A DNA stretch of 61,679 nt, the filler included, from Asterionella formosa (taxonomy: Eukaryota), in assembly GCA_002256025.1 (NCBI GenBank). It is 16 parts of 16 records of this genome, joined end to end, with 100 filler letters (N's around TTAATTAATTAA, not from the genome) between each part and the next. Parts side by side here need not be neighbours in the genome. Positions count along the whole stretch, not along the records: positions 42,536 to 46,295 come from NKIB01013926.1; 15 more parts are not named here. One strand, 5' to 3'. Position numbers and translations under genes: made by a program. The notes under the pieces are model-generated. The model made no database searches. It was not told the origin of the DNA and saw only the letters and a program-made list of their open reading frames with translations. Below, piece by piece: positions 3,777 through 56,200 of the stretch (the first letter of the stretch is position 1; every line of letters begins with the position of its first letter).

Positions 3777-3876
3777 NNNNNNNNNNNNNNNNNNNNNNNN
3801 NNNNNNNNNNNNNNNNNNNNTTAATTAATTAANNNNNNNNNNNNNNNNNNNNNNNNNNNNNNNNNNNNNNNNNNNN
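3777..3876. other. Artificial contig linker (44 N + TTAATTAATTAA + 44 N), first of 15
   Basis: Same 100-bp spacer at 3777, 7650, 11523, 15391, 19257, 23122, 26986, 30850, 34714, 38575, 42436, 46296, 50150, 53998, 57844; intervening contig lengths never increase (3776 to 3736 bp). 17231-17948 is a separate within-contig gap. Confidence 0.99.
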
Positions 3877-6400: not shown

Positions 6401-7159
6401 ATCAAAGAATAGCTACGCTCCTGTCTTTAAAGGTAAGGAACTAGAACGAAGACAAAGAAAATCTAATGAGACATGAAAATTACGAAACCAGAATCACTCT
6501 GTTACTATAAATAGACAGTCTCATGCTTCTTTGTGCATATCGCCTGCTATGCTGCGTTTCAATTCTAGATATATTACGTTCTTGTTAGAGAGACGATGTT
6601 AAGGAGAAGTAGATTGTGCTGCTCTTTAATGGATGTTGTTTAGCTATGATTGAGGTTGTAACACTGATTGATGCTCTGGTGACAGACCGGCCGGAAATTT
6701 TCGTCTTGTGTGATGAGCCATTTCGTTTACTTTGGATTTCTTTTCAAGCTCTTAACGGATTGCATAGTACGAACATAATGTACAATGTAGATGATGATTC
6801 ATCGAAGACATATGATGACTTGAACGACAAATGAAGATTTTATCACAAACATTCATTCCTCTTGACATGGCTGCTTTGTCGTTGTTGCAAGAATCAGAGT
6901 GAGGACTGGCGAGGATGATGAGCCAAGCCACATTACTCTAACTGGTACATTATCCTACCAAGAAATTTAAATAAAGGAAACTAAAAGAAACAATACATAT
7001 AATAATTAAATTTCCATAGTCAAAAGGGTTACTATTTAAATTACGAGGGCATTTATCAAAATTATTAGATGATATAACGAAAAATTATGATCAGATGATC
7101 ATAATCCTATGATGCATCATGGAAATATGATGGTTTTTATTTGCAGACGTTGCAGAGTA

Positions 7160-7648
7160 CCTTCCACCAAAAAATTTATTCATACTATGGAGCTTATTGA
7201 GGCCATCAATTCTTTGCTTGGAGTGACCAGCACTGTGATCAAATAGAAAGACAAAGTCGATTGTGGGGTAGAGCACCTGCAGGACATCAACGGCATCTTC
7301 GAACTGGGGCACCATGCGGGCATAGATCCAGTATCCCTCTCGGTTTTCTCCATATTCAAACACAACAAGAAATGGAGATTTTTCTGCTGTGAATGTCTTC
7401 TTTTGTCTTCCACCGTACACTTCAATTGCAGCTTCCTCGTCTGTGTATTTCTTCCCAAGGCGACAGAGGTTTTTCTCAGCAAGGATATTTATTGGTATCT
7501 GTTGGAGTGGCCCATGCTCACGACAGACAAATGCAGAAATTATTGAGCCTGTACCTTCATTCTTTGGAAGTAGTGGCCGCTCGCCCTTAGGCCCAACCCA
7601 CATCTTGGATAAAAATAGTAACTGTTTATATATAGCCTCATCTTGTCC
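7160..7648 (-). mobile_element. IS630/Tc1/mariner-type transposase catalytic fragment (truncated)
   Basis: GQDEAIYKQ (first Asp)...LPKNEGTGSIISAFVCREHG...EYGENREGYW...FVFLFDHSAGH (second Asp)...DGLN...MNKFFGG; breaks off before the catalytic Glu. Confidence 0.75.
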
Positions 7649-11095: not shown

Positions 11096-11809
11096 GAAGA
11101 AGATCATGGAGTCAAAATGGCCCCGGATAAATTATAACATTTGATGCAATGGTTTTCGGCCAGAGACAGTACCAGGGTAACCTACCAGCAAGTTGCGTTA
11201 ATTTTTCTGAACTAAAGATTTAGCTTTTTAAATCCCAGTTTCAATTGTTTATGTAAGCAAAATGACTGCAACTTGCCAGGTATCTCTTGCTTTTCAGTGT
11301 CCAGAATCTCTGCCCTCTCTATTTTCATGATAGCTATATACCGGTATATAGAAATATTTGTATGTACCGTTGCGGTCGTCATTGCGATTGCATCTCATGC
11401 ATTCGCTTTGGGTTCACTCGTCGTGGTCGTCATATTTTCACTATACGGCGATTGTGGCCCTTGGCACTCCATTATTTCTGCTTCTGACACGGGTTTTCAG
11501 AGCGCTTTAGACGAAGGACAAANNNNNNNNNNNNNNNNNNNNNNNNNNNNNNNNNNNNNNNNNNNNTTAATTAATTAANNNNNNNNNNNNNNNNNNNNNN
11601 NNNNNNNNNNNNNNNNNNNNNNGTTGACATTTTCAATTCTCACATGATACTACATCTACTATTTCGATTCAGCATAGAAGGAGATACGAAAATGTGCGTA
11701 ACAGACTACTGTCCACATAGCTATAGTTATAGAATGATTCTGATTAGAATGTATTTCATTTTCATATCGCTCGCTCGTTTCTGCATTTGGTATACTGTAC
11801 TTGAATTAA

Positions 11810-12220
11810 CTATTGAACTTGTCCGCATCTTTGATACCATCAAGAGAGCGAAAGCAAGTGGCTCTTTTCATTGTTGTTTGCTCGTTGGAAGAATTTGATA
11901 TCTGTATTGTCATTTGCTTGTTGGAATTGTCCGTTGCCTCAAACTTGCTTGGCGTGTGCGTTCTCACACTATCAACTTGTTTTCAATGATATGTTGTTCT
12001 TGTATTCACTGTTGAACTTGTCCGTATCTTTGTTACCATCAATAGAGCGACAAGTGGGTCTCTTCATTGTTGTTTGCTCCTGGAAAAGTCGGTGTCGGTG
12101 TCCGTGTCCGTGTCATCCTCATCAATAGAGAGACAAGTTCTTTCGTTGGAAAAATTGGTACAGTATCATCATTCGCTCGTTCGAACCACTGTCTGTTGCC
12201 TCAAACCTGATTAGCGTTTG
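11810..12220. repeat. Degenerate ~200-bp tandem duplication
   Basis: TTGAACTTGTCCG.ATCTTTG.TACCATCAA.AGAGCGA at ~11813 and ~12012; GTTGCCTCAAAC at ~11933 and ~12195. Confidence 0.75.
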
Positions 12221-12816
12221 AGTACCGGTACCCGGTATGTGCACTGTCGACTTTAGTACATTACAGGCGGAGTGACTTCGCTACTAAATTGCGTGATATA
12301 ATAATATACCCTGTAGCATGATGCAGAATACAGTTGCTTCCCAATCATCTCATCATGATTGATAAGATGATACTGTGATATCATGATAAGGTTACATCGA
12401 TACATACATCACCAAAGTATGATACGTAATAATGAATAAAGTACATCACATAGCTATGATGCAGCGATCATAGAACTGTGATGATTTTATGAAATATATA
12501 TGATATAATTTTGATCAAAATATGATCATGTAAAAATAGTACAATGACAATAAAGTACAATAAAATATGTACGCAAGTGTTATCAATACATCACAGAATA
12601 TAAATCAAGCAATCATAAAGTATGTTAATTAATATATATGTTTGTCGTTTAATGTATACAGTAAAAGTCAACACTTATTATGATAGTATTATACAGTGGA
12701 TAGGATCTAAGTATACGGATGCGTTGATATGTACATCACTATAATATGATTTGTGATATGGATTGATGCATATCACATACCGGTATCCTCAACAACCAGC
12801 AATCACGTTCATTGTC

Positions 12817-14390
12817 ATGTCGTCTTTCCTTGTTTTAGCTATATATGTGCCAGCATGTGTATTTTGTAAACACTACGCTGGCGGAACATGCATATTACAC
12901 TGTGCTCTGTTCAACAATTACTACACTCGGTTACCATCACACCAGTTCCACCTCCACAAGCGCCGCAATAAGCTCCGCGAAAAGGTCCGCGTTTCCCTTC
13001 CACTGTTTTACATCATTGTTTTCTGGCCTTTTGACAACTTTCCAAATGGCATTTCACGGATTTCATGGAAAGCATCAGTCAAACAAGAAACGAGACTTAC
13101 TTCCATTGTTTACACTACACGACTTTATGTTTTCGGAAAAGAAGATGAAGAAAGTTATGAAATCAATCGAAGATTCCTTTGAATACACTAAAAGATCAAA
13201 TGAATTTGAACAGATTCATAATACTCCAGAAAAAGCAAGTATGCCGATACAATTGTGGCTGAGATTGAAAAGAAGGAAAGATTGCTTTCGAAGAGGAAAC
13301 CCAAACAGTTGGTCTTCGTGGATGAAGACTCTATTCGTACAGAGTCACAGTTCCACCATCCAGTGTCGTATTTTGCTCCTCATTCTCGCGAAATCGCTGA
13401 TAATGAAGAAGAACTCAGTGATTCTCATTCATTTGATGAACAAATTCATGCGATGAATGAAAATATCGGCGGAAATGTGGCAGACAACACTTCTGAAGTA
13501 GAATGGTTGAAAAGTTGCAAAACCAAGAAACATATCTCACTATGCGTCCAGAACATCAAGATGAACATCATAAAAGCAGAGAAACCATTGCATTTCTAAA
13601 AGAAAAGATATTCAAGAAAAAGTCTGAGCTAGATCAAGACCTCGAATTCAAGAAGATCAATGCAGACAGAGATGTGATGACCATGCTGGCTAAGGCAGTT
13701 GATGCTCTGAATAGGGAACGAAGTCAGAAACACAAAATTGAATCTTTTTCCAAATCATACATGGAAGAAAAAGAATTTCTTTGTAAAATCACTGAAAACA
13801 ATCCCGAAGGCAGCTAGCCTGCTTTTGTGAAATGTGTAGACTTATTATGCCAAAGCAAACGGCATCTTCCTTGAGTATGCCGGAATCGCATGGACAACTA
13901 AAATTGTGGAAAGATTTGTACACTTGTAAACCCGCAAGATATCTGCAATTACGCCTCTGTATTTTATGGAGTCAAAGGTATCAAAAAATCATCCTCAGAT
14001 CATTTTAAAGATCTTGCATATTGGGACCTTGAAACAATTACCTTTATGATCCATTATATAATTCATGAACTTCATCCAACTGAGGTAAAGGTTATATTTG
14101 ATCTTGATGAGAACCCAGAAAAGGGTAATAACAATTCATATATATACCAAGGTGATTGTCATCCACTTCATCACGAAAGTAACTATGTGCTAATTGTGAA
14201 TTGCAAAAGATCAGATGAGGAGGAAAAGAATCATTTTGTGCATTATCTTTTTGCTATAAATGATGGATTATGCCAAGTCCGTGATCCAGGAAAAGATGCA
14301 AGTTTGGATGAACATTATGATCAAGTATTTCACCTTTCCCGTAAGTACTGCGTCATCCCCGGATGCAGAAAAGAGTTGGAATTGTTTTGA
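12817..14390 (+). pseudogene. Frameshifted ORF of unknown family, probably transposon cargo
   Basis: Five overlapping same-strand ORF fragments in staggered frames (12763, 12845, 13255, 13503, 14046), with Cys/His-rich start and charged helical middle; flanked by motif-rich AT tracts. Confidence 0.45.
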
Positions 14391-14587
14391 ACCGATACAG
14401 GATATCTTCCATGAAGTGACCATCACGTAAATAAGCCTAGTTGATTTTGAATGGATCACATGAATTAATTGAATACATCAAAATGCTTACTTGAATATAT
14501 CTATATATTATCTGAATACATCACGTTCATTATGTGATCAGAGTATCATGCATGCATTCCTGATCATCACTATATTACGTGATCACT

Positions 14588-14723
14588 TTCACATAATTAT
14601 TTGAAATACTTCACATAATTTTTTGAAATACTTCACATAATTATTTGAAATACTTCACATAATTATTTGAAATACTTCACATAATTTTTTGAAATACTTC
14701 ACATAATTATTTGAAATACTTCA
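14588..14723. repeat. 22-bp tandem repeat, 6.2 copies, near-palindromic unit
   Basis: TTCACATAATT(A/T)TTTGAAATAC units start at 14588, 14610, 14632, 14654, 14676, 14698. Confidence 0.98.
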
Positions 14724-15205
14724 ATTAATTCTGTAATTCAGTTCACATTGTCTTAAATTTTTGTTCACGTAATTCTATAATATAGTTCACGTGATTTATT
14801 AAATTTTTACGTAATTTAAAAGTACTATCAAATAATGTTGATCACTAATTCAACAACCGGTTTTTCACATTACATGGGAAACAAATCTCGATATGCAATC
14901 AAACAAAGCTGTTCTATCAGAATGGAATCTTCAGTCTTGAGAAGGCAGGCATTATGAGACATCTGTAAGGACATTGCAAGACAAGGAGAAGCCATTCATT
15001 CAGAAGGGGAAAATTATTCACTCTTGAACAGGCATCATTCTACGAAGTTGCAACATGAATGCATCCTCACACACTGATTTCCTTCTTGTACTTGAAATGA
15101 CTTCTTCATTGACCTGCAGAGATTTTCAAAACAACAGTGTGTCAGTAATGTATTTGATAGAACTAGCAACAGCAGAAAGTAACACACAGTTCATTCCGGA
15201 CTTCA

Positions 15206-15312
15206 TTGTCCCTGCCTGTTGTCAACAACAATGCGTGAGCTGACAAGCCATACTAGCATTTAGGTACACAACAAGAACACACTCACCATTCAACTGTATT
15301 GCAGAGTTCTTT
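15206..15312 (-). repeat. 107-bp block identical to 44162-44268, containing a 71-nt intron-like sequence
   Basis: Minus strand GTGAGT...CTCAC...ACAG at 15286-15216 and 44242-44172; partial third copy at 44408-44477. Confidence 0.9.
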
Positions 15313-15656
15313 CATTTGAGTCAAGGATTCAATTGACATTGCAGCAACCTATGCAGTTACAGAAACAATGAGAAGGAATGATTTGTTAGCNNNNNNNNNN
15401 NNNNNNNNNNNNNNNNNNNNNNNNNNNNNNNNNNTTAATTAATTAANNNNNNNNNNNNNNNNNNNNNNNNNNNNNNNNNNNNNNNNNNNNAGTACTAACT
15501 AGTAACGTAAGAACAAATGATATTTATGATGAATCACAGTATGTACGTACATTTTATCATGTTGGACAAGTGTGAAATTCCTGCCGTTGCTGTCCACATA
15601 GCGATTATGCAAGACAACGACCACAGGCCCTGCCAAATCCATCGAACGATCGAACG

Positions 15657-17111: not shown

Positions 17112-19255
17112 TCAGAATACTTTTTCAAGACGATGTAACCTTCTGATGTGTTGAGAACTAATGATTGCTTCAGCTGCTGCAGAAAATTGATACAGGCTCC
17201 CCATATCCTTCCATTGATCGACCTTCATGTNNNNNNNNNNNNNNNNNNNNNNNNNNNNNNNNNNNNNNNNNNNNNNNNNNNNNNNNNNNNNNNNNNNNNN
17301 NNNNNNNNNNNNNNNNNNNNNNNNNNNNNNNNNNNNNNNNNNNNNNNNNNNNNNNNNNNNNNNNNNNNNNNNNNNNNNNNNNNNNNNNNNNNNNNNNNNN
17401 NNNNNNNNNNNNNNNNNNNNNNNNNNNNNNNNNNNNNNNNNNNNNNNNNNNNNNNNNNNNNNNNNNNNNNNNNNNNNNNNNNNNNNNNNNNNNNNNNNNN
17501 NNNNNNNNNNNNNNNNNNNNNNNNNNNNNNNNNNNNNNNNNNNNNNNNNNNNNNNNNNNNNNNNNNNNNNNNNNNNNNNNNNNNNNNNNNNNNNNNNNNN
17601 NNNNNNNNNNNNNNNNNNNNNNNNNNNNNNNNNNNNNNNNNNNNNNNNNNNNNNNNNNNNNNNNNNNNNNNNNNNNNNNNNNNNNNNNNNNNNNNNNNNN
17701 NNNNNNNNNNNNNNNNNNNNNNNNNNNNNNNNNNNNNNNNNNNNNNNNNNNNNNNNNNNNNNNNNNNNNNNNNNNNNNNNNNNNNNNNNNNNNNNNNNNN
17801 NNNNNNNNNNNNNNNNNNNNNNNNNNNNNNNNNNNNNNNNNNNNNNNNNNNNNNNNNNNNNNNNNNNNNNNNNNNNNNNNNNNNNNNNNNNNNNNNNNNN
17901 NNNNNNNNNNNNNNNNNNNNNNNNNNNNNNNNNNNNNNNNNNNNNNNNATAACCGCGTAGGCGATGCCAGAGACCAAGATAAAGTCGTACACAGTGAAGT
18001 GCTTCGCGGCACCCTTACTCTGAGCTCGATATACCTCAATCACTGGAAGTAAACATGCAACTGTACTCCATTCCTGAAAGTGGAGGCCCAACTTTAATTG
18101 AGCGAATGTAATGCTGTGCAAGAGAACCTGGTTCTTCGCATTCTTTGCATCTTCGGTGAATGCAACTTGATCCATGATTGTTCCTGTCAAAATCATTGGA
18201 AATGTGGAGCGACCCTGAAAATTCAAGACTGCTTGGTGAGTTGGGGCAAGCATTGTTTTAATGCCATCCTGCTTAAATTCAAAGCATAGCTCTTCAATCG
18301 CTAGTATTTCGTCATCCATTTGATCCAGTGGAGTGCCAATACTGCCAAGAACCATAATGCGATTGTAAGCTGCAAGAAGACCAGTTCCGATCTCACTTGT
18401 GGCAAGTCCATTGGTGTAAGCCCGATACAAAGGGGCGACAAGAGTGTCGAGAGGCATTTTCCAATGATTTGTATAACAGCACACAACTAATATTGTGCGG
18501 GCCCCTACTTCCTGTGATTTCGTTGTTTCCAATAGGTGCATTGCCAGCCTACCAAAAGCAAACCCATCGTCATATCTCCCAACGAATGTTTTTATCATTC
18601 CGAAGGTGCCCACAGCTTGTGTGGACATCGCAGACAAACCGAAACGTAACGTGAAGCGCATCATCTCCAGAGAGACTAAGATGAATTCTCTCCCTTTCTC
18701 CAAGAAAAAGGCGCTGTAAGCCAAAATGCCCATAATTTTCATGCAAGCCAGCTTATCTTCGTCTTTCATTTCTGGTAATTTCAGAATGTCACTAATGTCT
18801 TTCGGTACTAGTGATGATGCGCGCACTAGACTTGTGATGATATGTATTGTTGATGGTTTCTTCGGAAACGAAATTTTGAATTGCAACAGAAACTTAAAGC
18901 CGAGATCCAATGCGTCCAATAGCCAACCTCGTGCTCTAAGAGACTCAATTTTTGCGTAGTATGCACGAAGGCAATCCCGACGCGAAACAGAAAAAGCCAG
19001 TACTTCATCAAATAACTCATTGCACATCAAGAAATCGCCTGAACAATATTCCATCTCTGCCCCCAAGCTCGCGAGTTCAAGTGCTAGATTGTAATACTTG
19101 CGCCACCTACATTCTTTCTCTAGCAATCCACGTGCTTTTCTCAGATATTGCGAGGCTGGAAAGTACGCAGACCTGGCTTTTGCTAATTTTGCTACCTTCA
19201 AATTCAATTTTGCCAACTCGACCTTCTGCCTTTCATCGGTCACAAAATTAAGTCC
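17112..19255 (-). CDS. C-terminal helical (TPR-like) region of a COG3899-type predicted ATPase; partial, spans an N gap
   Basis: ~435 aa open from the contig edge: ELAKLNLKVAKLAKARSAYFPASQYL..W.KYYNLALEL..AEMEYCSGDF..; after the gap a plausible end MKVDQW..EKVF* (TGA 17112-17114), whose linkage is inferred. Confidence 0.75.
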
Positions 19256-20099: not shown

Positions 20100-21436
20100 A
20101 CCATTGACGCTGGCAATAGGCTTTTTCAATTGTTTCTTGGTCAAAAGTAGAGGCACTGGCAATTTCAGGATCATCGACAAGAGCACACAGCATTGAATAG
20201 TATTAGTGTTGCAGGTTCGCTCCAGCTGGCCATGTTCATCGTGAACCTTGTTGGTGCTAGCGGGAGCACTGATCATTGCAGAAAAATTAAAGCAACTTGT
20301 TTGATGTTACAGAGAATCTGGTCCTAGCTAGCTACCGGTAGCGCTACTATTAGCTACGTGTCAGGCTACATAGTACAGTAGGAGTGAGAGAGGAAATTGC
20401 GGAGACAAAACCGATACATACAGGCATTTCCTCTTATACCGGTATTCTAGACGCTACACTCTACACTATATACTCTCACCGGTATATCTGTTATTACATC
20501 AAATCTGATGAAATCCATTTTACCGTATGTAAAATTTGTTGGATCGACGTGATGTGATTGATGTTATGTAGAGATGCATCTGATGCTAACGGTAGTACAG
20601 TACGATACCCAGTACCAGGGGACCACAGTTTGAACCAGCTCATTACAAAGCGTCAAGACCACTCTATTTGGACCAGCATATACAGAATCGTGCATGCCTA
20701 TTGAGACGGGCAGGCGCAGGTCCGAACACTTGTCTTTGCATTGTTCCCTCATGTGCTTCCACCTGGAATCTTTTTTTAACGTAGAAAATATACCAATGAC
20801 GTAGATGATGACGTGTTTTCAGCACCTTTTATCAGATGTAAAAATGATACCAATATGCATACGGTACTATGTGAAGATATTAGCAATCATTCTGGCTGAG
20901 GAACCCCCAATGTGGAGCGACTTTTAATGTCCACTTCCACCTTCTAAAGATAATTCCATACCGGTACCGATCGAGATCTTTCCAATATACCTCATACCGC
21001 AACGACAGGTATTGTACTGATGTATCTGAATAGCTCGTACCACCTAATTAATTGCTCAAGCTGTCCTCATCAGTCATGCAACTATTTTACACAAGATTCA
21101 TCCTTTACTCTACTACATGTATATGAGTTTATGCACAGATGGTAGCTAATTTATACACTTTTTATACATAAATTCAATTATCCCAAAAGCCCTTTCATCA
21201 CCACTACGGCATATTACTTAAAATGTGTGTATCATATAATGCATTCATACAGATATTCATACATAACTACATAGATGATGAACAAAAGTTCCGGTATGAC
21301 TGAATGAATTTTTGGACCTTGCATGTAGAATTGAACGACATGAGATGGAAGCGAAAGAATTACAAACACATCCACAAAAAAGAAAAAGGCGTATTTAACA
21401 CACGTGCGAGAGATTAAACAACGAGAACAATCAAAC

Positions 21437-25570: not shown

Positions 25571-26106
25571 ACCCTAACCCTAACCCTAACCCTAACCGGT
25601 AAGGACAACACAGTGCACTTCTACATATTGATATCAAAAGACATACAACCGGTACTAACGCATTCATTCTCATACCAGTTTCCATCTATAGGATTAGTCA
25701 TACTGTGTGCTACAGTTACATGCCCAGCCCTAGAAGGGCTGGATGCTCTATACCCTAACCCTAACACTATGGTAAGTACAACACAGTGCACCTCTACATA
25801 TTGATATCAAAAGACAAACAACCGGTACTATCACATTCATTCTCATACCAGTTTCCATCTATAGGATTAGTCATACTGTGTGCTACAGTTACATGCCCAG
25901 CCCTAGAAGGGCTGGATGCTCTATAGGGATGACACCTAGAGGCGTCGTCCCTTTTCCCTAACCCGTTCTATTGATACAACACTATTCGAAAAATCAATGA
26001 ACCCCTATCTTTACATACCACCACACAGCGCACACCCTCCTGGTGTCCTTTGCGGTATTATTGCAGGCATGATCCAACGAATCTACCATCTAACCCTAAC
26101 CCTAAC
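25571..26106 (+). mobile_element. Penelope-like retroelement remnant interleaved with telomeric repeats
   Basis: (CCCTAA)4 at 25572-25595, two units with 173-bp period separated by (CCCTAA)2, CCCTAACCC at ~25956, RT thumb fragment IDTTLFEKSMNPYLYIPPHSAHPPGVLCGIIAGMIQRIYHL (25967-26092), then CTAACCCTAACCCTAA. Confidence 0.8.
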
Positions 26107-31618: not shown

Positions 31619-32568
31619 GAATCTCGGCATTTCATACTAGGGTTTCCGTTTTTCACACGTATGATGGGTGTTTCCGTCGTGGCTGGTGGTGATTGAGAGT
31701 AAGAGTGCCGAATATTAAATGGGCGATGAAAAATTAGAATCTTCTACTTTGATCCACTTTCAGCTTGTTGTTGTTATCGGACTGTCGCAGAAAATGTGCC
31801 AGACGGCAGCGTTGATGTTCGCAAGTTCGTCCTGTTTGTACTTTGGAGTAGAAATTCCCTTGGCTTGAATTTTTCTCATACATTGAATTGTTTTTCCCAC
31901 GGGGGAGCAATAATTTGGACCGCCTTTCACTCCATTTATAGGTCGTCAGACTGTTTCTATTTCGAAACCTTTTGTTGACCCTTAGCAAATAGCTAGGTTG
32001 GTCTCCCACCCTAGAATGTATGTGAACACAATCTCACAAAACCGCATTTCTAGGTGAAGGCTGTAAAGTGGCTGAACTAATACATGCTTCAAATAGATTC
32101 CGCATGCGATCCTGAAGTCTACCAACTTCTTTTTTGGTAGGATCAACTGGCCATCTCAGACGTTTGGATGTCTTGGTTTTCCTACTCCTAATACATACTA
32201 TGATAATTCATATACCGGTACCCCGGTACAAAGAAGTATATAATTCGTGGACCGTTTGGTGAAGAAAATCCGGGTTAGTCAAACATTGTGACGGACTTGA
32301 CAAGGAACCCGGAGTTTTCTTGGAAGTTGAGGCGATGTCAAACAAAAGATTTGCAGGTGAGTTTGGATTTGTTGACCATGGTGGCCCTTCGATGGTCATC
32401 TTTGGGGAGGTTGCGATGCCAAGTAACTGAAAGCCAACATGCATGCCAATAGAAAGAATCAGATAAAATGCAATGGTGGAACGACGCTCTAACTTTCGAC
32501 CCCGCAATGCCAAATCTCACCTATCGTCAACTTGCTGGGCCCATTTTCTTGTACAGAAATATACAAAA

Positions 32569-34339: not shown

Positions 34340-34713
34340 TGCACTGCTACTGGTACATAGCACATACCAGTACGCACCAGTACAAGGTTATCTATGTACC
34401 AGGTACCGTTAATAAGTACTCCGAGAACCTCCATGTACTACTAGATTACCGGTAAGGCAGTGCGTACATGACAATATCATTGTACTGGTACCAGAGTACC
34501 TGGTACCTGGTACCTGGTACCCGATGGGGCAACAACAAGGGCAACATACTACGACAGGTACTACCGGTACCGGTCGTATATAACAATCTATATCGGTGAC
34601 CAGGAGTCAGTGCGTGCGTACAGTACTGGGACCTGGAACCACGGGTACGGTAACCGCAATATACTGTAGTACGTAGGTATTGGGATTTACAGGCTACCTA
34701 CTGCAGATGTCGT
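34340..34713. repeat. GTAC/TACC(W)GGTA-dense low-complexity tract
   Basis: Includes (GTACCTG)3 at ~34496-34516, TACCGGTA at 34447 and 34562, and TACGGTA, TACAGTA, TACTGTA, TACCAGGTA variants. Confidence 0.8.
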
Positions 34714-34813: not shown

Positions 34814-36370
34814 CTTGCCTTGATCGCCGCCCCTGTGGTTGCCGAGATTTATCTCAAGGAACAATTCAATGATGAGGTGCGTTTTTAGTGTCATAACTAA
34901 GTTGGAGACCTTTCCATATTCATGTAGGGGCTGGTAATGAATCTACTCTCCTTATTGATGAGTTCTTGTTGAATTGAAATAACACAGTGGCCGAATGATC
35001 AGCTTTGTTTAAGCTTCATAGATTCTCGTCTCACAGTCCTTCTCTCTCTCACTCACTCTCGTTTCAGGGCTGGACCAAACGATGGACCGAGTCAAGCAAG
35101 TGGAAGCCAAAGGCCGACATGGGAAAGTGGGTCAACACCGCTGGAGAATGGTACGGGGATAAAGAAGACAAGGGAATCCAAACATCCGAAGATGCTCGAT
35201 TCTACGGCTTAAGCGCCAAGCTTAGCAAGGAGTTCAAGAGTGAAGACAAAGAGTTGGTTATCCAATACTCTGTCAAGCACGAGCAGGACTTGGACTGCGG
35301 TGGTGCCTATATCAAGCTTTTGCCAGGTGGAAAGAAGTTTGATGCTGCAAGCTTTGGCGGGGATTCCCCTTATGCTGTCATGTTTGGACCTGACATCTGT
35401 GGTTCCAGTAATAAAAAGACGCACGTCATCTTGCACTACGCAAAGAAAAACGACAATCTCCTCATCAAAAAGACTGTAAATACCGAGTCAGATAATTTGA
35501 CCCACCTTTACACTCTTGTTATTCGCCCCGACAACACCTTTGAGGTATTCATTGACAACAAGTCGGTAAGAAAAGGAAAGCTTGAAGATGAGTTTGATTT
35601 TCTCCTTGCAAAGGAAATCAAGGATCCTGCGGCATCGAAGCCCTCGGACTGGGTTGACAATGCCAAAATGCCCGACCCTGAAGACATTAAGCCTGAAGGA
35701 TATGATGACATTCAAGCCGAGATACCTGACCCAGACGCCGCCAAACCTGATGATTGGGATGATGAAGACGATGGCGAATGGGAGGCGCCAATGATTGACA
35801 ACCCCGACTACAAAGGACCATGGAAGCCAAAGATGGTAAGTATTTCAATGCGTTGCATCTCATATACACTTTGTTTACCGACCTTGTGAATGCCGTCAAT
35901 CTTTTTTGGTCACTCAAATCGGGTTTCCTTTCACAGATTAACAACCCTCTCTACAAAGGCAAGTGGGAGCACCCAATGATTGCTAATCCAGATTACGCTG
36001 AAGATGATGAAATGTTCATGGTCTGTAAAGATGGATGTACTCATGTTGGATTCGAGTTGTGGCAAGTTAAGACTGGTACCCTTTTCGACGATATCATCAT
36101 TACCGATAGTTTGGAAGAAGCGCAGAAGTTCGCAGAAGAGACTTTCTTCAAGAAGAAGGACGCTGAAAAGGAAATGTATGACAAAATCAAAGCAGAGAAA
36201 CGTGAGGCAGATATGCCGGAGGATATGGTAAGTTGAACCATGTAGAGCGGGACCAGCTGAGAGTTGATTTGCAAAAATGCATTAATGATTCTTTCCATTT
36301 CTTTTAGGGTGAAATGGGAGACGACATGATGGGCGGCATGGACATGGATGGATTTGGTGACGAATTCTAG
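34814..36370 (+). CDS. CRT: Calreticulin, 5' partial; exons <34814-34876, 35068-35835, 35937-36227, 36308-36370
   Basis: KHEQDLDCGGAYIKL, MFGPDICG, P-domain repeats (KPxDWD, WEAPMIDNPDYKG), GFELWQVKTGTLFD; three GT-AG introns keep frame; ends GFGDEF*. Confidence 0.97.
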
Positions 36371-39275: not shown

Positions 39276-40899
39276 AATACTACTACTTCTAGTTAGATAC
39301 TTCACCAGGTACTCAAACTGTCCAAAAACAGCAGCTACAACGATTCGCCGGCACCACTAGTGTCTTTACTGTTCGCATATGAAGGATAACATAGCAAACA
39401 TACAATCTTTCCACGTGAGGGTCTGCTTACTTGGAAAAATGCATTACTAATGAGTTACATAAACGTGAACATATATTAACAACCACTAATTAAAAAATTA
39501 GCATGTAAATAATTTAATCGAAACCAATTTAACATAAATACATCAATTGCATATACATGTATGAATTGCCAATGGCTTTTTTACATAAGCTGACCACTCA
39601 AATATTTGCGGGAAACTGAATGAAACAAACCCCTATGATAATAATCACAACATGAATAGAATTACCTACTGTCATTCAGAACACTTTGTATGGTTGTTGC
39701 AACAAAATTGACCATCCTACTGCTGGATATCTAACAGTTACAATCATCAAAACAAGCATACCATCCTCATTTTCTTTCTTCCTGCCACCATTGCCACTTT
39801 CGAGGTTACGCCTTCCATAATTGAATGCAGGTTGCCTTAGTTCTACTGTTATATCGTACTTTGTACATATATTGAGAATGGATGGTTCGAAGAAGAAGGG
39901 GTCCTCGTCATGCATCTGCATTTTGCTCTAGATAGCCAAAAGTGAAAATCGAAAAAGCCGAAAAACTTTTTCACATGTAGCTGCCAATTTTAATCTTTCT
40001 ATATTTATTATATGCATGGATCTGTAGCTTATGTGATTGCGCATATTAGGGCAATCAAGCTGGAGAATTGTCCCAGAGAAATTTTCAGAATTGACTTAGT
40101 AATTAATTTCAACCAGAGGGAGTACCACCAAGCAAACGTTGGCAGTTTTATGTACAGTACCAGGTACCTGGTAGCAGGTACTACCATCGTAAGAGCATCT
40201 CTACTGCATCGACCAAATACCAAAGTCAATTGAAGTTGAAAGCATCAAAACAGATCACTTGGTCAAGAATATTTTATCAAAAGTCGAATATTTCATTTTT
40301 TGGCAAGAATGCATCAACCAAATCCTAAAATAGTCTAATCTTGCGCCCAAACTTTTAGCAAATAGAAAAAGAGCAATATTATCTTTATGTGTGAATTGTT
40401 GATTTAGTGATGATGGCTGGGTACGCACTACATAGATATGTACGAGCTCCTACAAAGGTTGACATGGAAATGTCTTTACGCCTCTATTAAGCCAAGCGTT
40501 GGCCAGGACTTCTTGGTTCATTGGACATGATGCAGTGGGAATGGAAAAATTGTCCCAAAGAACACAGAGGACCATTTCCAGGAAAGGATGGAGTGGCTAC
40601 TGTTGCTTTGGAAGCTGCTGTTGATTGTAGACTTTGGTGAAGGATCCTGGCGCTTCCGTGCAAGCTTTGGTCAGTGAGTGCAATGAGCAAATCATGTCAT
40701 CATAGCATGTATCATACTAGTACACAACATGATAGTAGAAGACAAGTGGGATAAACAACACACAACAGAATTTTCATTTTTATTCAGGATGGTTTTTTCG
40801 TTGACGATGTAAATCATGACAAAGTCTTACTTTTCTAAATTCAAAACAATTCGAATGAAATACATGAATGGTGAGTACGCACTGCCAATTGCGAAACTA

Positions 40900-42356: not shown

Positions 42357-42435
42357 TCCCATTCATGATCCTTGGGACTTCGTCATGTTGTGGCGTTCTA
42401 CCCCCTGCTCCATAACCACAGCCACCCTGTCGCGG
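42357..42435. repeat. 79-bp contig-end sequence, exact reverse complement of 46217-46295
   Basis: Both copies run exactly to a contig end. Confidence 0.97.
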
Positions 42436-42535
42436 NNNNNNNNNNNNNNNNNNNNNNNNNNNNNNNNNNNNNNNNNNNNTTAATTAATTAANNNNNNNNN
42501 NNNNNNNNNNNNNNNNNNNNNNNNNNNNNNNNNNN

Positions 42536-42750
<215 letters not shown>

Positions 42751-44479
42751 GGGCAATTGAGTAGTAAAACTAAAAGTTCCACGTTGCGGTTTCAACCTAC
42801 TTCATTAGAAGTCTGACTGGATCACCAATTCCGAAATGATGAAAATCTCAAAATATTTCCATTTATTAATATAACCTGTAACCGCTATAAAGTTTCGAAC
42901 GGAAAAGCGCTGCCACCTTTCACAGCAGAATCGCTGACTACCAACTCAGCTTGCTGACTGCGGACTTCGTATTCACACCCTGAATTTTAGGTCAAACCGA
43001 CACCTAAAAAATGGTTGGTACAAAATGTACACACGAGAACGACTTCTACCTCAGGCGGACCACACCCATCCATACCGAATACAGAAAGGACTGATAATAC
43101 GTTGCAGGGGGACAAAAATTATTGTCACTACTATGTATAATCCACACAATCAATTACGACTCACCATTACTTCATTTCAACCTCAACCAAATAGAATGTT
43201 GATGAAATGATTCATGAATACTTAATAGCTAGCTATTAGAAGTGTCAGTACTACTTGTTCTGTTGAAAATTGTTGACAACATTCAACAATGGCAGCATGA
43301 TTCTTTGGTAGTAGGCTGAATGGTGCTTGAACCAAATCAATTTACTTGTTCATTTCAACAACTACTAGTAGCAATTCATTAGCATCAAAATTACAAAATC
43401 AGAGTTTCGATGTTAACATTGTAGTCTTTGGTAGTAGATTTATCCATACTTCTAGCTAATTAGAATAATCTTGCACATTGTGAGCTTAGCTTCATGCACT
43501 CCTTGCATCGCTCATGAAGTCTCAATGATAGGTTTATGGAGCGAGTTCAATCATCTCTTAAATCTATCAAAGAATCATGTTATTTGTGTGAATTTTTATC
43601 TGCCCAACCTGCTTTTTCAGGTTGCGACAAATGGTGGTCCATCAGTGACAAATTTGCATGACATGGTGATGCTAGAGAATCCGGAAAGCTTGATTCAATT
43701 CAACAATCAAAAATGCGCCAGATTCTAAATTCTTCAAGTCGGTATTTTCTAGCAATGAGAATAAGGTGGTAAATTGATGAATTGGGCTTGAATTGGCGAC
43801 GAAAACGAAGAAGTATGATGCACTCTATACTAGCTAGCTAGGTATGGATGGTAAACAGAATAAATCAGACGTTTACAAAATCAAACGAACATTTTCATGG
43901 CTGTTATGATATCTAGTCATCACTATTCTATTTGAAAATCACATCCACACATGCAACAAGCAGTTAGAATAGTGGTCTCACTACCAACATGTGAAGTGAT
44001 GCAGGAACTTACCCTGGAGTCTTCTCGGACTGAGAATTATGCAGCAAAACATACCTACGCAAGACTCCATGTCTACAAGAACTCTTTCGCACGTACAAAT
44101 TCCGATTCCAATATTTTGGTGACTGTTGAAAAAGCCGACCGAGTCGACTTTTCGGAGGACGTTGTCCCTGCCTGTTGTCAACAACAATGCGTGAGCTGAC
44201 AAGCCATACTAGCATTTAGGTACACAACAAGAACACACTCACCATTCAACTGTATTGCAGAGTTCTTTTGGATTTCATCCGAATGCTCCTGAATTGAAAG
44301 GGTTTGCTGCAATGTCAATTGAATGTAGAGGAACATCAGTGTGAGTTATCAGTAGCGTTGCTCATATAGCCGTCAAAATAGCGCAGTAATCTTACCAGAA
44401 CAACTTCCATTCCGGACCTCATTGTCCCTGCCTGTTGTCAACAACAATGCGTGAGCTGACAAGCCATACTAGCATTTTT

Positions 44480-45685
44480 CGCCGACTATTCCGTTGTTTG
44501 GTTTTATTGTCCTATGCAGTTACAGAAACAATGAGAAGGAATGATTTGTTAGCTAGTAGTCATGTTACATTGAAACAACGACACGCAATTCCATCGTATC
44601 CTCTTGCTTCACTTACCACAAATCAATGCAACTGATGCATAAGTCTGTTATAGTAACTTGTCAGTAAGCCAAATTATTGAATAAGTAAGTTTCGGGTATC
44701 CAATGTTGTCGAATAAAACTTACCGGTTCATTTTTGTCATCTTAACTTTGAGAGAAGGTAAACGTTTTGTCAGCTTTATACCAACAGAAGTGAATAGGTC
44801 CAACGAGTGGAGTGACAAGAGCACTTACGCAATTTGGTTTTGTTTTACATTGGTGCTCCCCAACAAGCGAAACGAGCTGTTGAATCAACTGAGAAAAAAG
44901 GAAATGTGGCTGCATTTAGTTAACAATTTGTTGTTGTGCTGCCTGTCTCCCAATGATTATCATCCAAGTAGCTACCACATTGATGGCTTCATTATATTAC
45001 CTTAAACATTCTCCATCCTTCGAAGGCGCAATGTGTCGAAGTCACAATGTTTTTCGTCATGTATTGCAAAAATTTTCTTTTCTTGTCATGTGCTTTACTA
45101 CGACGTATCTTATCATGAAGCAGCAGGCATTGTTTGTTAACATGACAGAACGATTTGAAAAATATATTGGCCATGAATATAGTAATAAAATTTGTAAATA
45201 TATATATATATATATATAGCGTTATACATTTTATAAAATTCAAAGGCGCTCTCGATATGGAACATCTGATATGGTTGAGATGATCATACTCACATATACA
45301 TAATTCGAAAATACTCAATGCACTATATGTCCATTGTTTTCCACGACTACCGGTACGTGTACCGGTATTATCTCTGAAATTTGTTTGCATCGATATTTTT
45401 TACGTCCGTTGAAACTAATTATTTAGACCGTTCAAATGCCGCAAGGGTTTTGGTAGCAAATTGTTTAAGCCCCTTTTTTGGGCGGGAGCTCTTCATGTGT
45501 ACCGGTACATCATATGACAATAGCAACGTATCATATATATATACAGGGTACCAGTAGCAGGTAGTAAGTGATATACTGGGGGTAGTCGGAGTAGTGCCGG
45601 TAAACTAGCAACAGAACACCATATGTTCAGGACTGTTGCTACTGCAGTGGGACAGTAAATCATCATAGTTTTAGGATTGTATGAT
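44480..45685. repeat. ~1.2-kb dispersed repeat, direct homolog at 54792-55997; fragment at 15348-15390
   Basis: Colinear from CGCCGACTATTCCGTTGTT through TCCATCCTTCGAAGGCGCAATGTGTCGAAG to CATCATAGTTTTAGGAT; no intact ORF. Confidence 0.96.
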
Positions 45686-45888
45686 CGTAAAACTAAAAAC
45701 CAATAGAACACGAAATGTCTATGACTGCTGCTATTGCAGCGGGACAGTAAATCATCATAATTTTAGGATCGTATGATCGTAAAACTAAAAACCAATAGAA
45801 CACCATATATTCAGGACTGTTGCTACTACCGTGGGACAGTAAATCATCATAGCTCTAGGATTGTATGATCGTAAAACTAAAAACCAAT
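45613..45888. repeat. 92-bp tandem repeat, 3 copies
   Basis: Units start at 45613, 45705, 45797; only one partial unit in the homolog at ~55927. Confidence 0.93.
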
Positions 45889-46395
45889 AGTCGGAGTAAT
45901 AAGCGAGCAACAGAACACCATATGTTCTGGCATACCTACCCGGTAGTTATCATAATATTGCTTTTATGAATTTAACTGGCGCGATAATTAGCCAGGCTGA
46001 CGAGTTACTACCGGTACCAGGTAGTACGTCTATATCTTTTATCAGCACCTTTAAGTAGCACCTACGGTTATGGTGGTACTATGTTTTTCCCTATTATTTT
46101 CTGTAGCAGCTCTGTAGAGAGGCTGTGAAGGTCAAAGCGCTGCCCCCCGCCCCCCCTCTATTACCGGAATACCGGAAAAATTTGGTACATCACCCATTAT
46201 CGTGCGTTGCAACGGCCCGCGACAGGGTGGCTGTGGTTATGGAGCAGGGGGTAGAACGCCACAACATGACGAAGTCCCAAGGATCATGAATGGGANNNNN
46301 NNNNNNNNNNNNNNNNNNNNNNNNNNNNNNNNNNNNNNNTTAATTAATTAANNNNNNNNNNNNNNNNNNNNNNNNNNNNNNNNNNNNNNNNNNNN

Positions 46396-52900: not shown

Positions 52901-53283
52901 CTTTATCATAGATCATGATACATGCATTATATTTAAAAAAAAGAAAAAAGTGAAAACAATCGAATGTGAATGAGATTTTGCGATCTGCGCCAATGGTGAG
53001 ATAGAATAAACAATTTCTTTCTTTCAAAGAAACAGCCTGATCGACTTGTGATGCAATATTAAGTCGTAAATTTTCTTTATACCAACAAAAATTCCTTTTT
53101 TAGTCTGCGCAATAATATTGACATACTGATTTGCAATTGCGAATTACTCATGTCCGTTTGATAGGCTTGTTTTGCAAGGGATTGCAAACCCACGCCGGCA
53201 ACATTGGATACACATGTAACATTCCTTCTTGGGGGTACCGGTACCGGTAGCCCGGTACAATATCCGATGTGGGTACCAGACAA

Positions 53284-54222: not shown

Positions 54223-56200
54223 ATATGCAGAAACAAGAACTCAACACACCGTCTAAAAATACAAAAAAAATCATGCATATAGAATCAAGGACATTGAACG
54301 CTAAGTGGCACAGGATTTTCGTATATATGATAATTTTTGGATCAAAACTATGATCAAGGTATCCTGCAACTGTGATGATTTATTAATATTTTACGGACCT
54401 TGAAGTATTATGATAATAAGAACATTATCATCACACAATTTATATCAACTGATCAACAACATTTCTCATCAATATCATAAACGTATGAATCCTAAAATCA
54501 GCTTAACTCTATGCTATCATGTGAATTGTTTCATCGTATATCTATCTTAAACATGATCATGATTCTAATCACAAGCATTGTTCAAAATAGATAGAAATGG
54601 ATCGTAATTGAAGTATCAAATTGAGAAATGCTATCTACTAAGTTATGATTTTTCAGGCCAGCGACTTTTCTCTCTCTACTTGGCTCAATGTATATTGTTC
54701 CTGTCTCGCCCTTTTCTTCCTCTTTTGTGAATCTTGTGCCAAGCAGTGCTTCGTCTCTCTCTCTCTGCTGTTCTTAGTGTCATTCTGAACTCGCCGACTA
54801 TTCCGTTGTTGGATCGGTTTATTTTCCTTTGCAGTTACAGTAACAATGAGAAGGAATGACTAGTTAGCTAGTCATGTTACAATGACAAAACATCACGCCA
54901 TTCCATCGTATCCTCTTGCTTGCTTCACTTTCTACAAATCAAAGCAACTGATGCATAAGTCTGTAGTAGTAACTGGTAAGTAAATTCTTGAATATGTAAG
55001 TTTCAGGTATCCAATGTTGTCAAATAAAGCTTACCGATTCATTTTCGTTAGCTCGACTTTGTGGGAAGATAAATGTGTCCGTAAGTTATGCTCCAACAGA
55101 AGTGAAAAGGTCCAACGACATGAGCACTTACCAATTTTGTTTTGTTTTAGCTACATTGGTGCTCCCCAACAAGCGAAATGAGCTATTGAATCAACTGAGA
55201 AGAGAGGAAACATGTGTTTAGTTTACAATTTGTTGTTGTCCTGCCTCCCAACGATTGTAATCCAAGTACCCCCAAGTTAATGGCTTCATTACCTTAAACA
55301 TACTCCATCCTTCGAAGGCGCAATGTGTCGAAGCCACAATGTTTTTCGTTATTGCGTAAACTTTCCTTTCTTGTCATAGTATGCTTTACTACGATATTTC
55401 TTTTCATGAAGCAGGCATTGTTTGTTAACATCACAGAACGATTTCAAATATATTTGCGATGTATATTGTTAAAAAATTTGTAAATATATAAATATATCAA
55501 GTGTTGTACATTTATAAAGCAAAGTCAAAGGCACTCTCAATATGGCATAACTGGCATTGTTGAGATGATCATATTTGCATAAAGATAATTCGAAAATATT
55601 CAATGCACCATGATATGTCCATTGTTCTCCACAACTTCGTGTACCGGTACTGTTTCTGAAATTTGTTTGAATCAATATTTTCTACATCCGTTGGAACCAA
55701 TTATTTACCAGCAGACCATTCAATTGGTGTAGTTCACAACCCATTTGTATCATTGTTTATATGCAAGGATTTTGGTAGCTAATTATTTAAGCCCCCTTTT
55801 TTGGCGGGAGTTCTTCATGTGTACATCATATGATCATAAAATTTTATCATATACATACAGAGTACCAGTAGCAGGTAGAAAGTGAGAGAGATACTGGGGT
55901 AGTTGGAGTCGTAGTAAGCGAGCAACAGAACACCATATGTTCAGGACTGTTGCTACTGCAGTGGGACAATAAAGCATCATAGTTTTAGGATCGTATGAAT
56001 ATATAGTTGAAAGCAAGATATGCTATTACTCAAACTCAGTTCTGATTTTGTATATGATAATGTAAATAGCACTGTTGATCTTATGGCATCATATCTAGAG
56101 AGCGTAAAATATTATATGTAGTGGATTCATTTCATTGTAGCAACACCTGATTTTAACATCATCGAAGTTAAGACAACAACAACAGTCATCTAATAGTACA

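Follow-up and report, generated by a model that had tools for sequence, protein, structure and literature searches.

Six-base-pair insertions at TA sites in a dispersed repeat of the diatom Asterionella formosa as probable transposon excision footprints

Introduction

A dispersed repeat in the draft genome of the diatom Asterionella formosa (assembly GCA_002256025.1) raises a simple question. Two of its copies, on different contigs, differ at three neighbouring places by an extra unit of the type CCGGTA. In which direction did these changes run, and what process adds the same six bases at TA dinucleotides? Excision footprints, the short scars that a cut-and-paste transposon leaves on departure, are textbook chemistry and are usually studied at a single locus or in engineered assays. 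The comparisons reported below make it probable that the CCGGTA differences are footprints of this kind, left by a TA-targeting transposon with CC...GG ends.

The stretch analysed here, called the window, has 61,679 bases and consists of 16 draft-assembly contigs of about 3.75-3.78 kb each, arranged by descending length; it is not one locus. The contigs are joined by N44-TTAATTAATTAA-N44 linkers (for example at 3777-3876, 42436-42535 and 46296-46395, as located from the N runs). One contig has an internal gap of 718 N at 17231-17948, so that the element search was run on 17 pieces with about 59.5 kb of real sequence. The two copies of the repeat therefore sit on different contigs, and features that appear to span pieces have no genomic linkage. 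An excess of TTAATTAA (31 copies) was rejected as a biological signal, as it is a product of the linkers. The G+C content across the window is 29-45%, and ordinary eukaryotic genes are present (Pfam matches to calreticulin, NAD-dependent epimerase, armadillo-repeat proteins and a PqiA-like membrane protein).

Results

The repeat family and its copies

The two copies in the window are as follows.

44479-45684, plus strand: copy A, a non-coding dispersed repeat of about 1.2 kb aligned, which carries all three insertions (self-BLAST, MAFFT)
54791-55998, plus strand: copy B, the same repeat family on another contig, with the short state at sites 1-3

The preliminary description of this DNA had paired 44480-45685 with 54792-55997, and both self-BLAST and MAFFT bear out that pair as a real repeat. 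The three differences of the +CCGGTA type that it placed at 45348, 45500 and 45595 were also correctly described. Copies A and B are 78.8% identical over 1271 columns when gaps are included (self-BLAST), and their mean column identity in the MAFFT alignment is 88%. Indel lengths of 4, 5, 6 and 9 bp disfavour a coding role for the repeat.

Six more copies, L001-L006, are metagenome contigs, retrieved by means of a conserved block of 29 bases that A and B have in common. L002 spans the 5' part only; site counts are given over seven copies (A, B, L001 and L003-L006). The eight-sequence MAFFT alignment and pairwise BLAST divide the family into two subfamilies, one A-like (A, L003, L004, L006) and one B-like (B, L001, L005). 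The contig bearing copy A is present in 18 public runs from 12 studies, most of them metagenomes from freshwater or lakes. For four of these runs, including X1, X6 and X8, Logan contigs were aligned to 42760-46295; X1 may be the source sample of the window itself and gives no independent support. Depth in run X8 rises from about 20 over 43350-43940 to 130-685 over 44058-46295, a further sign that the repeat of copy A is multi-copy.

Polarity of the CCGGTA differences

The sites that distinguish the copies are listed here; none of them carries a strand.

45348-45355: site 1, TACCGGTA, a derived 6-bp insertion at TA, private to copy A
45500-45507: site 2, TACCGGTA; the B subfamily has (G/A)TA
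45595-45602: site 3, TGCCGGTA, a derived 6-bp insertion at TA, private to A, with G instead of the canonical A as second base
45360-45367: older scar, TACCGGTA, common to the family, 12 bp from site 1
55706-55713: B-private insertion TA-CCAGCA, 6 bp at TA; B reads TATTTACCAGCAGACC

At site 1, copy A reads GAC-TACCGGTA-CGTG and copy B reads AAC-TT-CGTG (TT at 55636-55637), a clean 6-bp gap. The empty forms are GAC-TA-CGTG in L003, L004 and L006 and (G/A)AC-TT-CGTG in B, L001 and L005, so that the long form occurs in one of seven copies, A itself. In the public runs, three X6 contigs go on after 45350 with GTGTACCGG, the empty TA form, and 53 X1 contigs have the B-like short form. Site 3 reads GTAG-TGCCGGTA-AAC in A and GTAG-TA-AGC in B (TA at 55915-55916). 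Here the pairwise A/B alignment is untidy, and against L003, L004 and L006 the difference is one clean 6-bp gap. The empty forms at this site are GGAGTAGTAA in L001, L003, L004 and L006, GGAGTAGAAA in L005 and GGAGTCGTAGTAA in B, and the long form is again found in A only (1/7). One contig each of runs X6 and X8 has the short form, with six bases left out at 45594.

At both sites the long form of A is nested among the near-identical copies L003, L004 and L006, all with the short form. The short form at sites 1 and 3 is therefore ancestral and the long form derived: the extra units are insertions on the A lineage, and the alternative that the preliminary description had raised, an ancestral long form shortened by slippage deletion in other copies, does not apply there.

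Site 2 is likewise a clean 6-bp gap, with CATGTG-TACCGGTA-CATC in A and CATGTG-TA-CATC in B (TA at 55822-55823). It is long in A, L003, L004 and L006 and short in B, L001 and L005 (four copies against three). The distribution points to a single event on the branch separating the subfamilies, the direction of which these copies do not polarise. No entry for site 2 is among those listed for any of the four runs, which carries no weight either way.

The empty allele is TA at site 1 in L003, L004 and L006, at site 2 in B, L001 and L005 and at site 3 in L001, L003, L004 and L006. The same is true of a fourth clean change from TA to TACCGGTA at 45749, where X6 and X8 read GACAGTA-CCGGTA-AATGAATTT (continuing CCGGTAAATGAATTT...) and L006 reads GACAGTAAATGAATTT. 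The scars are polymorphic among copies and strains. The word of the older scar near site 1 is intact in A, B (55642-55649), L004 and L006, is TACCGGTT in L001 and TACCAGTA in L005, and its column is lost in L003, so that it has decayed in two of the six copies covering the position.

Over 1067 ungapped columns, the changes private to the A lineage comprise 23 substitutions and 7 insertions, with no deletion. Two of the insertions are of the CCGG type, one is GCTA at TA, and four are plain tandem duplications or repeat steps. When A and B are aligned by BLAST, there are three 6-bp gaps, of which two read TACCGG/GTACCG; the third, ACCAGC in B, lies at a TA as well. This third gap belongs to the B-private insertion, for which the other five covering copies (A, L001, L004, L005, L006) have TATT(T/C)AGACC, and which may represent the scar class in a decayed or imprecise form.

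Enrichment, variants and decay of the word

The preliminary description would have been refuted if CCGGTA indels were not enriched over other 6-bp indels; neither this test nor that of polarity went against its reading. Beyond the shares among gaps and insertions given above, the octamer itself is massively enriched. TACCGGTA occurs 25 times in the window with 0.31 expected, an excess of about 80-fold (100 dinucleotide shuffles, none of which reached 25). A third-order Markov model expects 1.09 (z = 32), and the word is the most over-represented 8-mer of the window, above all microsatellite words. It contains 25 of the 80 CCGG of the window. No other of the 16 palindromic octamers of the form TA-xyy'x'-TA is strongly enriched (22.8-fold for TACCGGTA, 3.5-fold for the runner-up), and TAGGCCTA, which has the same base composition, does not occur.

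The product is stereotyped, with one canonical form and minor variants: TACCGGTA 25 times, its 7-bp relative TACCWGGTA, that is TACC(A/T)GGTA, 11 times (0.26 expected), TACCCGGTA twice and TACCCCGGTA once. The first two give 36 sites in 59.5 kb, about one per 1.7 kb. The flanks of the 25 TACCGGTA sites are mutually unrelated, so the sites are not members of a dispersed repeat family; the sole deviation in flank composition is a depletion of T just outside the TA (4/50).

ORFs (open reading frames) of at least 150 amino acids hold one of the 36 sites and 18.8% of all TA dinucleotides (P = 0.005), and even that site (38503) lies upstream of the first Met of its ORF. The CpG-transition form TACCAGTA/TACTGGTA occurs 13 times with 1.27 expected and is the commonest of the 12 one-mismatch classes. 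TACCAGTA is also what stands in place of TACCGGTA at the homologous position of L005. The abundance of this form fits neutral decay of the scars.

Stacked and clustered scars

The scars are clustered, with gaps of 12, 50, 50, 65, 72... bp, and in six arrays neighbouring units share one TA:

12223-12237: stacked scar, TACCGGTACCCGGTA
32213-32228: stacked scar, TACCGGTACCCCGGTA
34497-34519: stacked scar, CCTGGTA three times, within the dense patch 34348-34569
40158-40173: stacked scar, TACCAGGTACCTGGTA
46009-46023: stacked scar, TACCGGTACCAGGTA, two unlike units on one shared TA
53236-53249: stacked scar, TACCGGTACCGGTA, then GCCCGGTA; CCGGTA twice
34999-35886: not an array but the calreticulin ORF (Pfam match), upstream of which lies the dense patch 34348-34569

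The arrays, which like the single sites have no strand, contain seven shared TAs in all. Random hits on TA would give 0.39, and none of 20000 simulations reached seven. Four of the six arrays are heterogeneous, combining CCGGTA with CCCGGTA, CCCCGGTA or CCAGGTA, or CCAGGTA with CCTGGTA; such mixed units do not come from slippage of a single unit. A further place, 46162-46177, reads TACCGGAATACCGGAA in the window and is six bases shorter in runs X6 and X8, which read ATTATACCGGAA.

Search for a source element and a transposase

We searched for pairs of TA|CC...GG|TA with at least 14 of 20 or at least 11 of 14 matching terminal bases. Neither the window (59.5 kb) nor L001-L006 yielded such an element with inverted ends, the matches being due to chance or artefact. 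One pair, 42399/46253, matched at 20 of 20 bases and was rejected as a terminal repeat, for it is part of a 79-bp contig-end overlap beside the linkers. This overlap is a perfect inverted match between 42357-42435 and 46217-46295, the ends of neighbouring pieces. It is most likely an overlap in the assembly graph, where two contigs abut, and not a terminal inverted repeat.

Proteins were scanned against Pfam for 78 of the 112 ORFs of at least 85 amino acids, the other 34 having been set aside by eye as overlapping other frames. The scanned ORFs contain no Tc1, mariner or pogo domain. One ORF was followed further:

7091-7648, minus strand: ORF fragment, 163 amino acids aligned at 67% identity to a multi-copy family of proteins of about 1000 amino acids

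It has 46 matches, of which the named ones are hypothetical proteins of the diatom Fragilaria crotonensis at 62-66% identity, and the family corresponds to no Pfam family. Its motifs are GQDE, FDHS(A/S)GH and PKCHAELAGEGVEY, which by eye resemble a DDE triad, and there are weak matches to HTH_33 and SAP as well as a faint DDE_3 lead (Atlas). A PDB profile search returned one match at chance level. The AlphaFold model has a mean pLDDT (predicted local distance difference test) of 55.9, too poor to classify, and Foldseek gave no match at E <= 0.001. We regard the ORF as a fragment of an unclassified protein, possibly DDE-like, with no established link to the scars.

Other micro-insertions at TA sites

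A second type of insertion adds GCTA and so turns TA into TAGCTA. One case, at 44969-44974, is private to A and another, at 55148-55153, to B. TAGCTA occurs 32 times in the window with 9.0 expected, and TAGCTAGCTA is found at 20325, 43226 and 43831. These insertions are not explained by CC/GG ends and may be the scar of another element. There is also a 4-bp difference at TA at 45058-45061 and the homologous columns of L002-L004 and L006, with TATGTA (CATGTA in A) where the B-like copies have TA. For TACATA/TATGTA the enrichment is 2.5-fold (58.5 against 23.7), while TACATGTA is found six times with 1.7 expected. Differences of this type would have the form of classical Tc1-type CA/TG footprints, yet they overlap words that resemble microsatellites.

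Surroundings of copy A and other features

Upstream of copy A, 44162-44553 is a mosaic whose blocks match 15192-15390, the end of piece 11623-15390, at 100% identity. L004 and L006 connect that piece (98% identity) straight to an A-like copy, and several runs break at 44162, 44324 and 44408. Either segmental duplication produced the mosaic or the contig is chimeric. The 3' end of copy A has a three-unit tandem repeat (about 92 bp) at 45609-45890, where the depth of the aligned stretch peaks in all four runs. The contig of copy A opens with long (CAA)n and then (CTA)n microsatellites at 42536-42750. Elsewhere, a short interstitial telomere-like run (TTAGGG/CCCTAA) lies at 25572-25595 beside a tandem duplication at 25577-25925.

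Discussion

How the scars would arise

In our view a TA-targeting cut-and-paste transposon with CC...GG ends probably left the CCGGTA differences behind as excision footprints. The anatomy of the scar is TA, two bases, their complement and TA, which is the product of Tc1/mariner chemistry, and the footprint reading therefore fits. To this extent the Tc1/mariner interpretation in the preliminary description, which rested on TA bracketing 2 + 2 terminal bases, is supported. We infer from the form of the scar both that the break is the work of a transposon rather than of some other TA-specific process and that the inner bases are the terminal ones of that transposon; the element itself is likewise deduced from its supposed traces.

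The source would be a Tc1/mariner/pogo-type element, or a non-autonomous miniature inverted-repeat transposable element (MITE) derived from one, with ends 5'-CC(W)...(W)GG-3'. Its insertion would duplicate the TA. On excision the transposase would cut the non-transferred strand 2-3 nt inside each end, and end-joining of TA-CC to GG-TA would give TACCGGTA, a net gain of 6 bp; with one extra terminal base retained the product would be TACC(A/T)GGTA, a net gain of 7 bp. Every scar would bring a new TA open to another hit, from which stacked arrays with GGTACC junctions may result, and the CpG within the scar would decay to TACCAGTA/TACTGGTA.

The inverted repeat of the mariner element Mos1 begins CCAGGT, and cleavage of its non-transferred strand falls 3 nt within the end. 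As a possible lead, with Mos1-like CCA...TGG ends and 3-nt overhangs, trimming of one base could give TACCAGGTA/TACCTGGTA, and trimming of one base per side could give TACCGGTA. The window differs from this model in that the full fill-in product TACCATGGTA occurs 0 times, and no mariner transposase is among the scanned ORFs.

Comparison with known footprints

Tc1/mariner excision proceeds by a cut of the non-transferred strand a few nt inside the element followed by end-joining. Between the TAs the footprints hold 2-4 nt from the start or the end of the element, as in TACAGTA/TACTGTA of Sleeping Beauty (PMC6943129). The scars of A. formosa are like those of Sleeping Beauty in that a duplicated TA brackets a few bases, here putatively terminal, and that one dominant canonical product is accompanied by rarer variants; TACC(A/T)GGTA is built like TAC(A/T)GTA, with A/T at its centre. 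They differ in that the letters are CC/GG and not CA/TG, that the main product keeps 2 + 2 bases, and that the element is not seen.

Natural footprints of Stowaway MITEs in Triticeae have been inferred comparatively, from homologous sequences placed on a tree (PMC1925063), much as was done here. According to that source, TA and short fragments of the terminal repeat remain, which we count as shared with the present scars, and an insertion next to an earlier footprint is an analogue of the stacking. The Stowaway case concerned a single intron site and an element still present in some taxa, unlike the many sites without an occupied allele found here.

The mechanism is thus known, and it is the density and the stacking that we did not find described in the literature searched. 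To our knowledge, 36 sites per 59.5 kb is far above the density reported for any natural genome. The search returned no account of the octamer TACCGGTA as a footprint, nor of transposon footprints in diatoms; among the matches listed, occurrences of the octamer were in primers or constructs, judging by titles. A report on Ds footprints (PMC1978519) is unrelated to the scars described here.

Alternative explanations

Several findings weigh against excision footprints. Besides the failure to find an element with inverted ends or a transposase domain in the searches above, no occupied allele was seen at any scar site in the eight copies or among the joints and loose ends listed for the four runs, a weak negative that leaves the series of occupied, empty and scar alleles incomplete. 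Half-footprints TACCTA/TAGGTA are not enriched (0.92-fold), and both site 3 and the B-private insertion deviate from the canonical word. At 46162-46177 the polymorphic extra unit, CCGGAA, has the T-to-A variant of its neighbour, a hint of local copying and not of an independent scar. The stacking, and the 12-bp spacing of site 1 from the older TACCGGTA, would fit local copying during repair too.

Some of these findings favour a TA-specific break and repair without mobile cargo, in line with the fallback of the preliminary description (another enzyme-driven process that writes CCGG at TA), whether by a domesticated transposase, by another TA nuclease or by a templated insertion of the polymerase-theta type that copies CCGGTA from a nearby scar. 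The searches above found neither a source element nor a transposase domain, the clustering and the stacking far above chance would suit such a process, the older TACCGGTA 12 bp downstream of site 1 is a possible template, and at 46162-46177 the extra unit has the variant of its neighbour. However, the nearest other TACCGGTA is 140 bp from site 2 and 95 bp from site 3, and most of the 25 sites are solitary in unrelated flanks, so that a first, untemplated source would still be required. TA, 2 nt, 2 nt and TA is moreover what PMC6943129 leads one to expect of Tc1/mariner excision, and we think a cargo-less origin unlikely. We give a slightly better, though still small, chance to a self-reinforcing process, in which the insertions would be more than passive traces of an ordinary transposon family: a TA-specific transposase, possibly domesticated or carried on a very low-copy element, would cut repeatedly while repair writes CCGG or CCWGG, with the TAs of scars (in GGTA/TACC context) as preferred targets.

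Replication slippage or local tandem duplication of the hexamer could produce perfect arrays such as CCTGGTA three times at 34497 and CCGGTA twice at 53236, and four of the seven A-private insertions are indeed plain tandem duplications or microsatellite steps. Yet the empty allele at sites 1-3 is only TA with no template beside it, four of the six arrays mix unlike units, and slippage cannot account for one octamer standing isolated at 25 places with unrelated flanks. As the origin of the isolated sites slippage is refuted; it may still extend existing arrays, and as a general account it is very unlikely. Selection would offer another view, in which TACCGGTA is a protein-binding palindrome of promoters and the 6-bp differences are losses by deletion between two TAs. 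In its favour, TACCGGTA is a palindrome found outside ORFs and gathered in intergenic patches, among them the one upstream of calreticulin. This view is highly improbable, given that sites 1 and 3 each have a derived long form in a single copy, that an origin by point mutation would not give a clean 6-bp insertion at TA, that the word decays by CpG transition as in neutral DNA (at 45360 in two of six covering copies), and that arrays mixing units of 6, 7 and 8 bp make no evident sense as binding sites. An artefact of assembly or sequencing might be suspected in a chain of small draft contigs in which the mosaic 44162-44553 is joined differently in other data. Its probability is close to nil: separate metagenome assemblies repeat site 2 (L003, L004, L006) and the word at 45360 (L004, L006), long and short forms are both present in runs of other studies, and sequencing error does not produce one palindrome at TA sites.

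Significance

One stereotyped scar supplies the leading 8-mer of the window, and in A, the single lineage that can be polarised, two scar insertions stand beside 23 substitutions, with further scars varying between copies and strains. The excess of stacking poses a question of target choice, namely whether the TAs of scars are preferred targets. Were the process self-reinforcing, scars would seed scars, lengthen intergenic DNA, build GGTACC tracts and make CpG palindromes in promoters, and would be the leading source of small insertions in the lineage. If the footprint reading holds genome-wide, transposon excision, besides insertion, would be a main shaper of the non-coding DNA of this diatom and a major source of its small insertions. 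The scars would then document past transposition naturally, even after the element itself is gone, and would provide plentiful, easily scored indel markers for population work.

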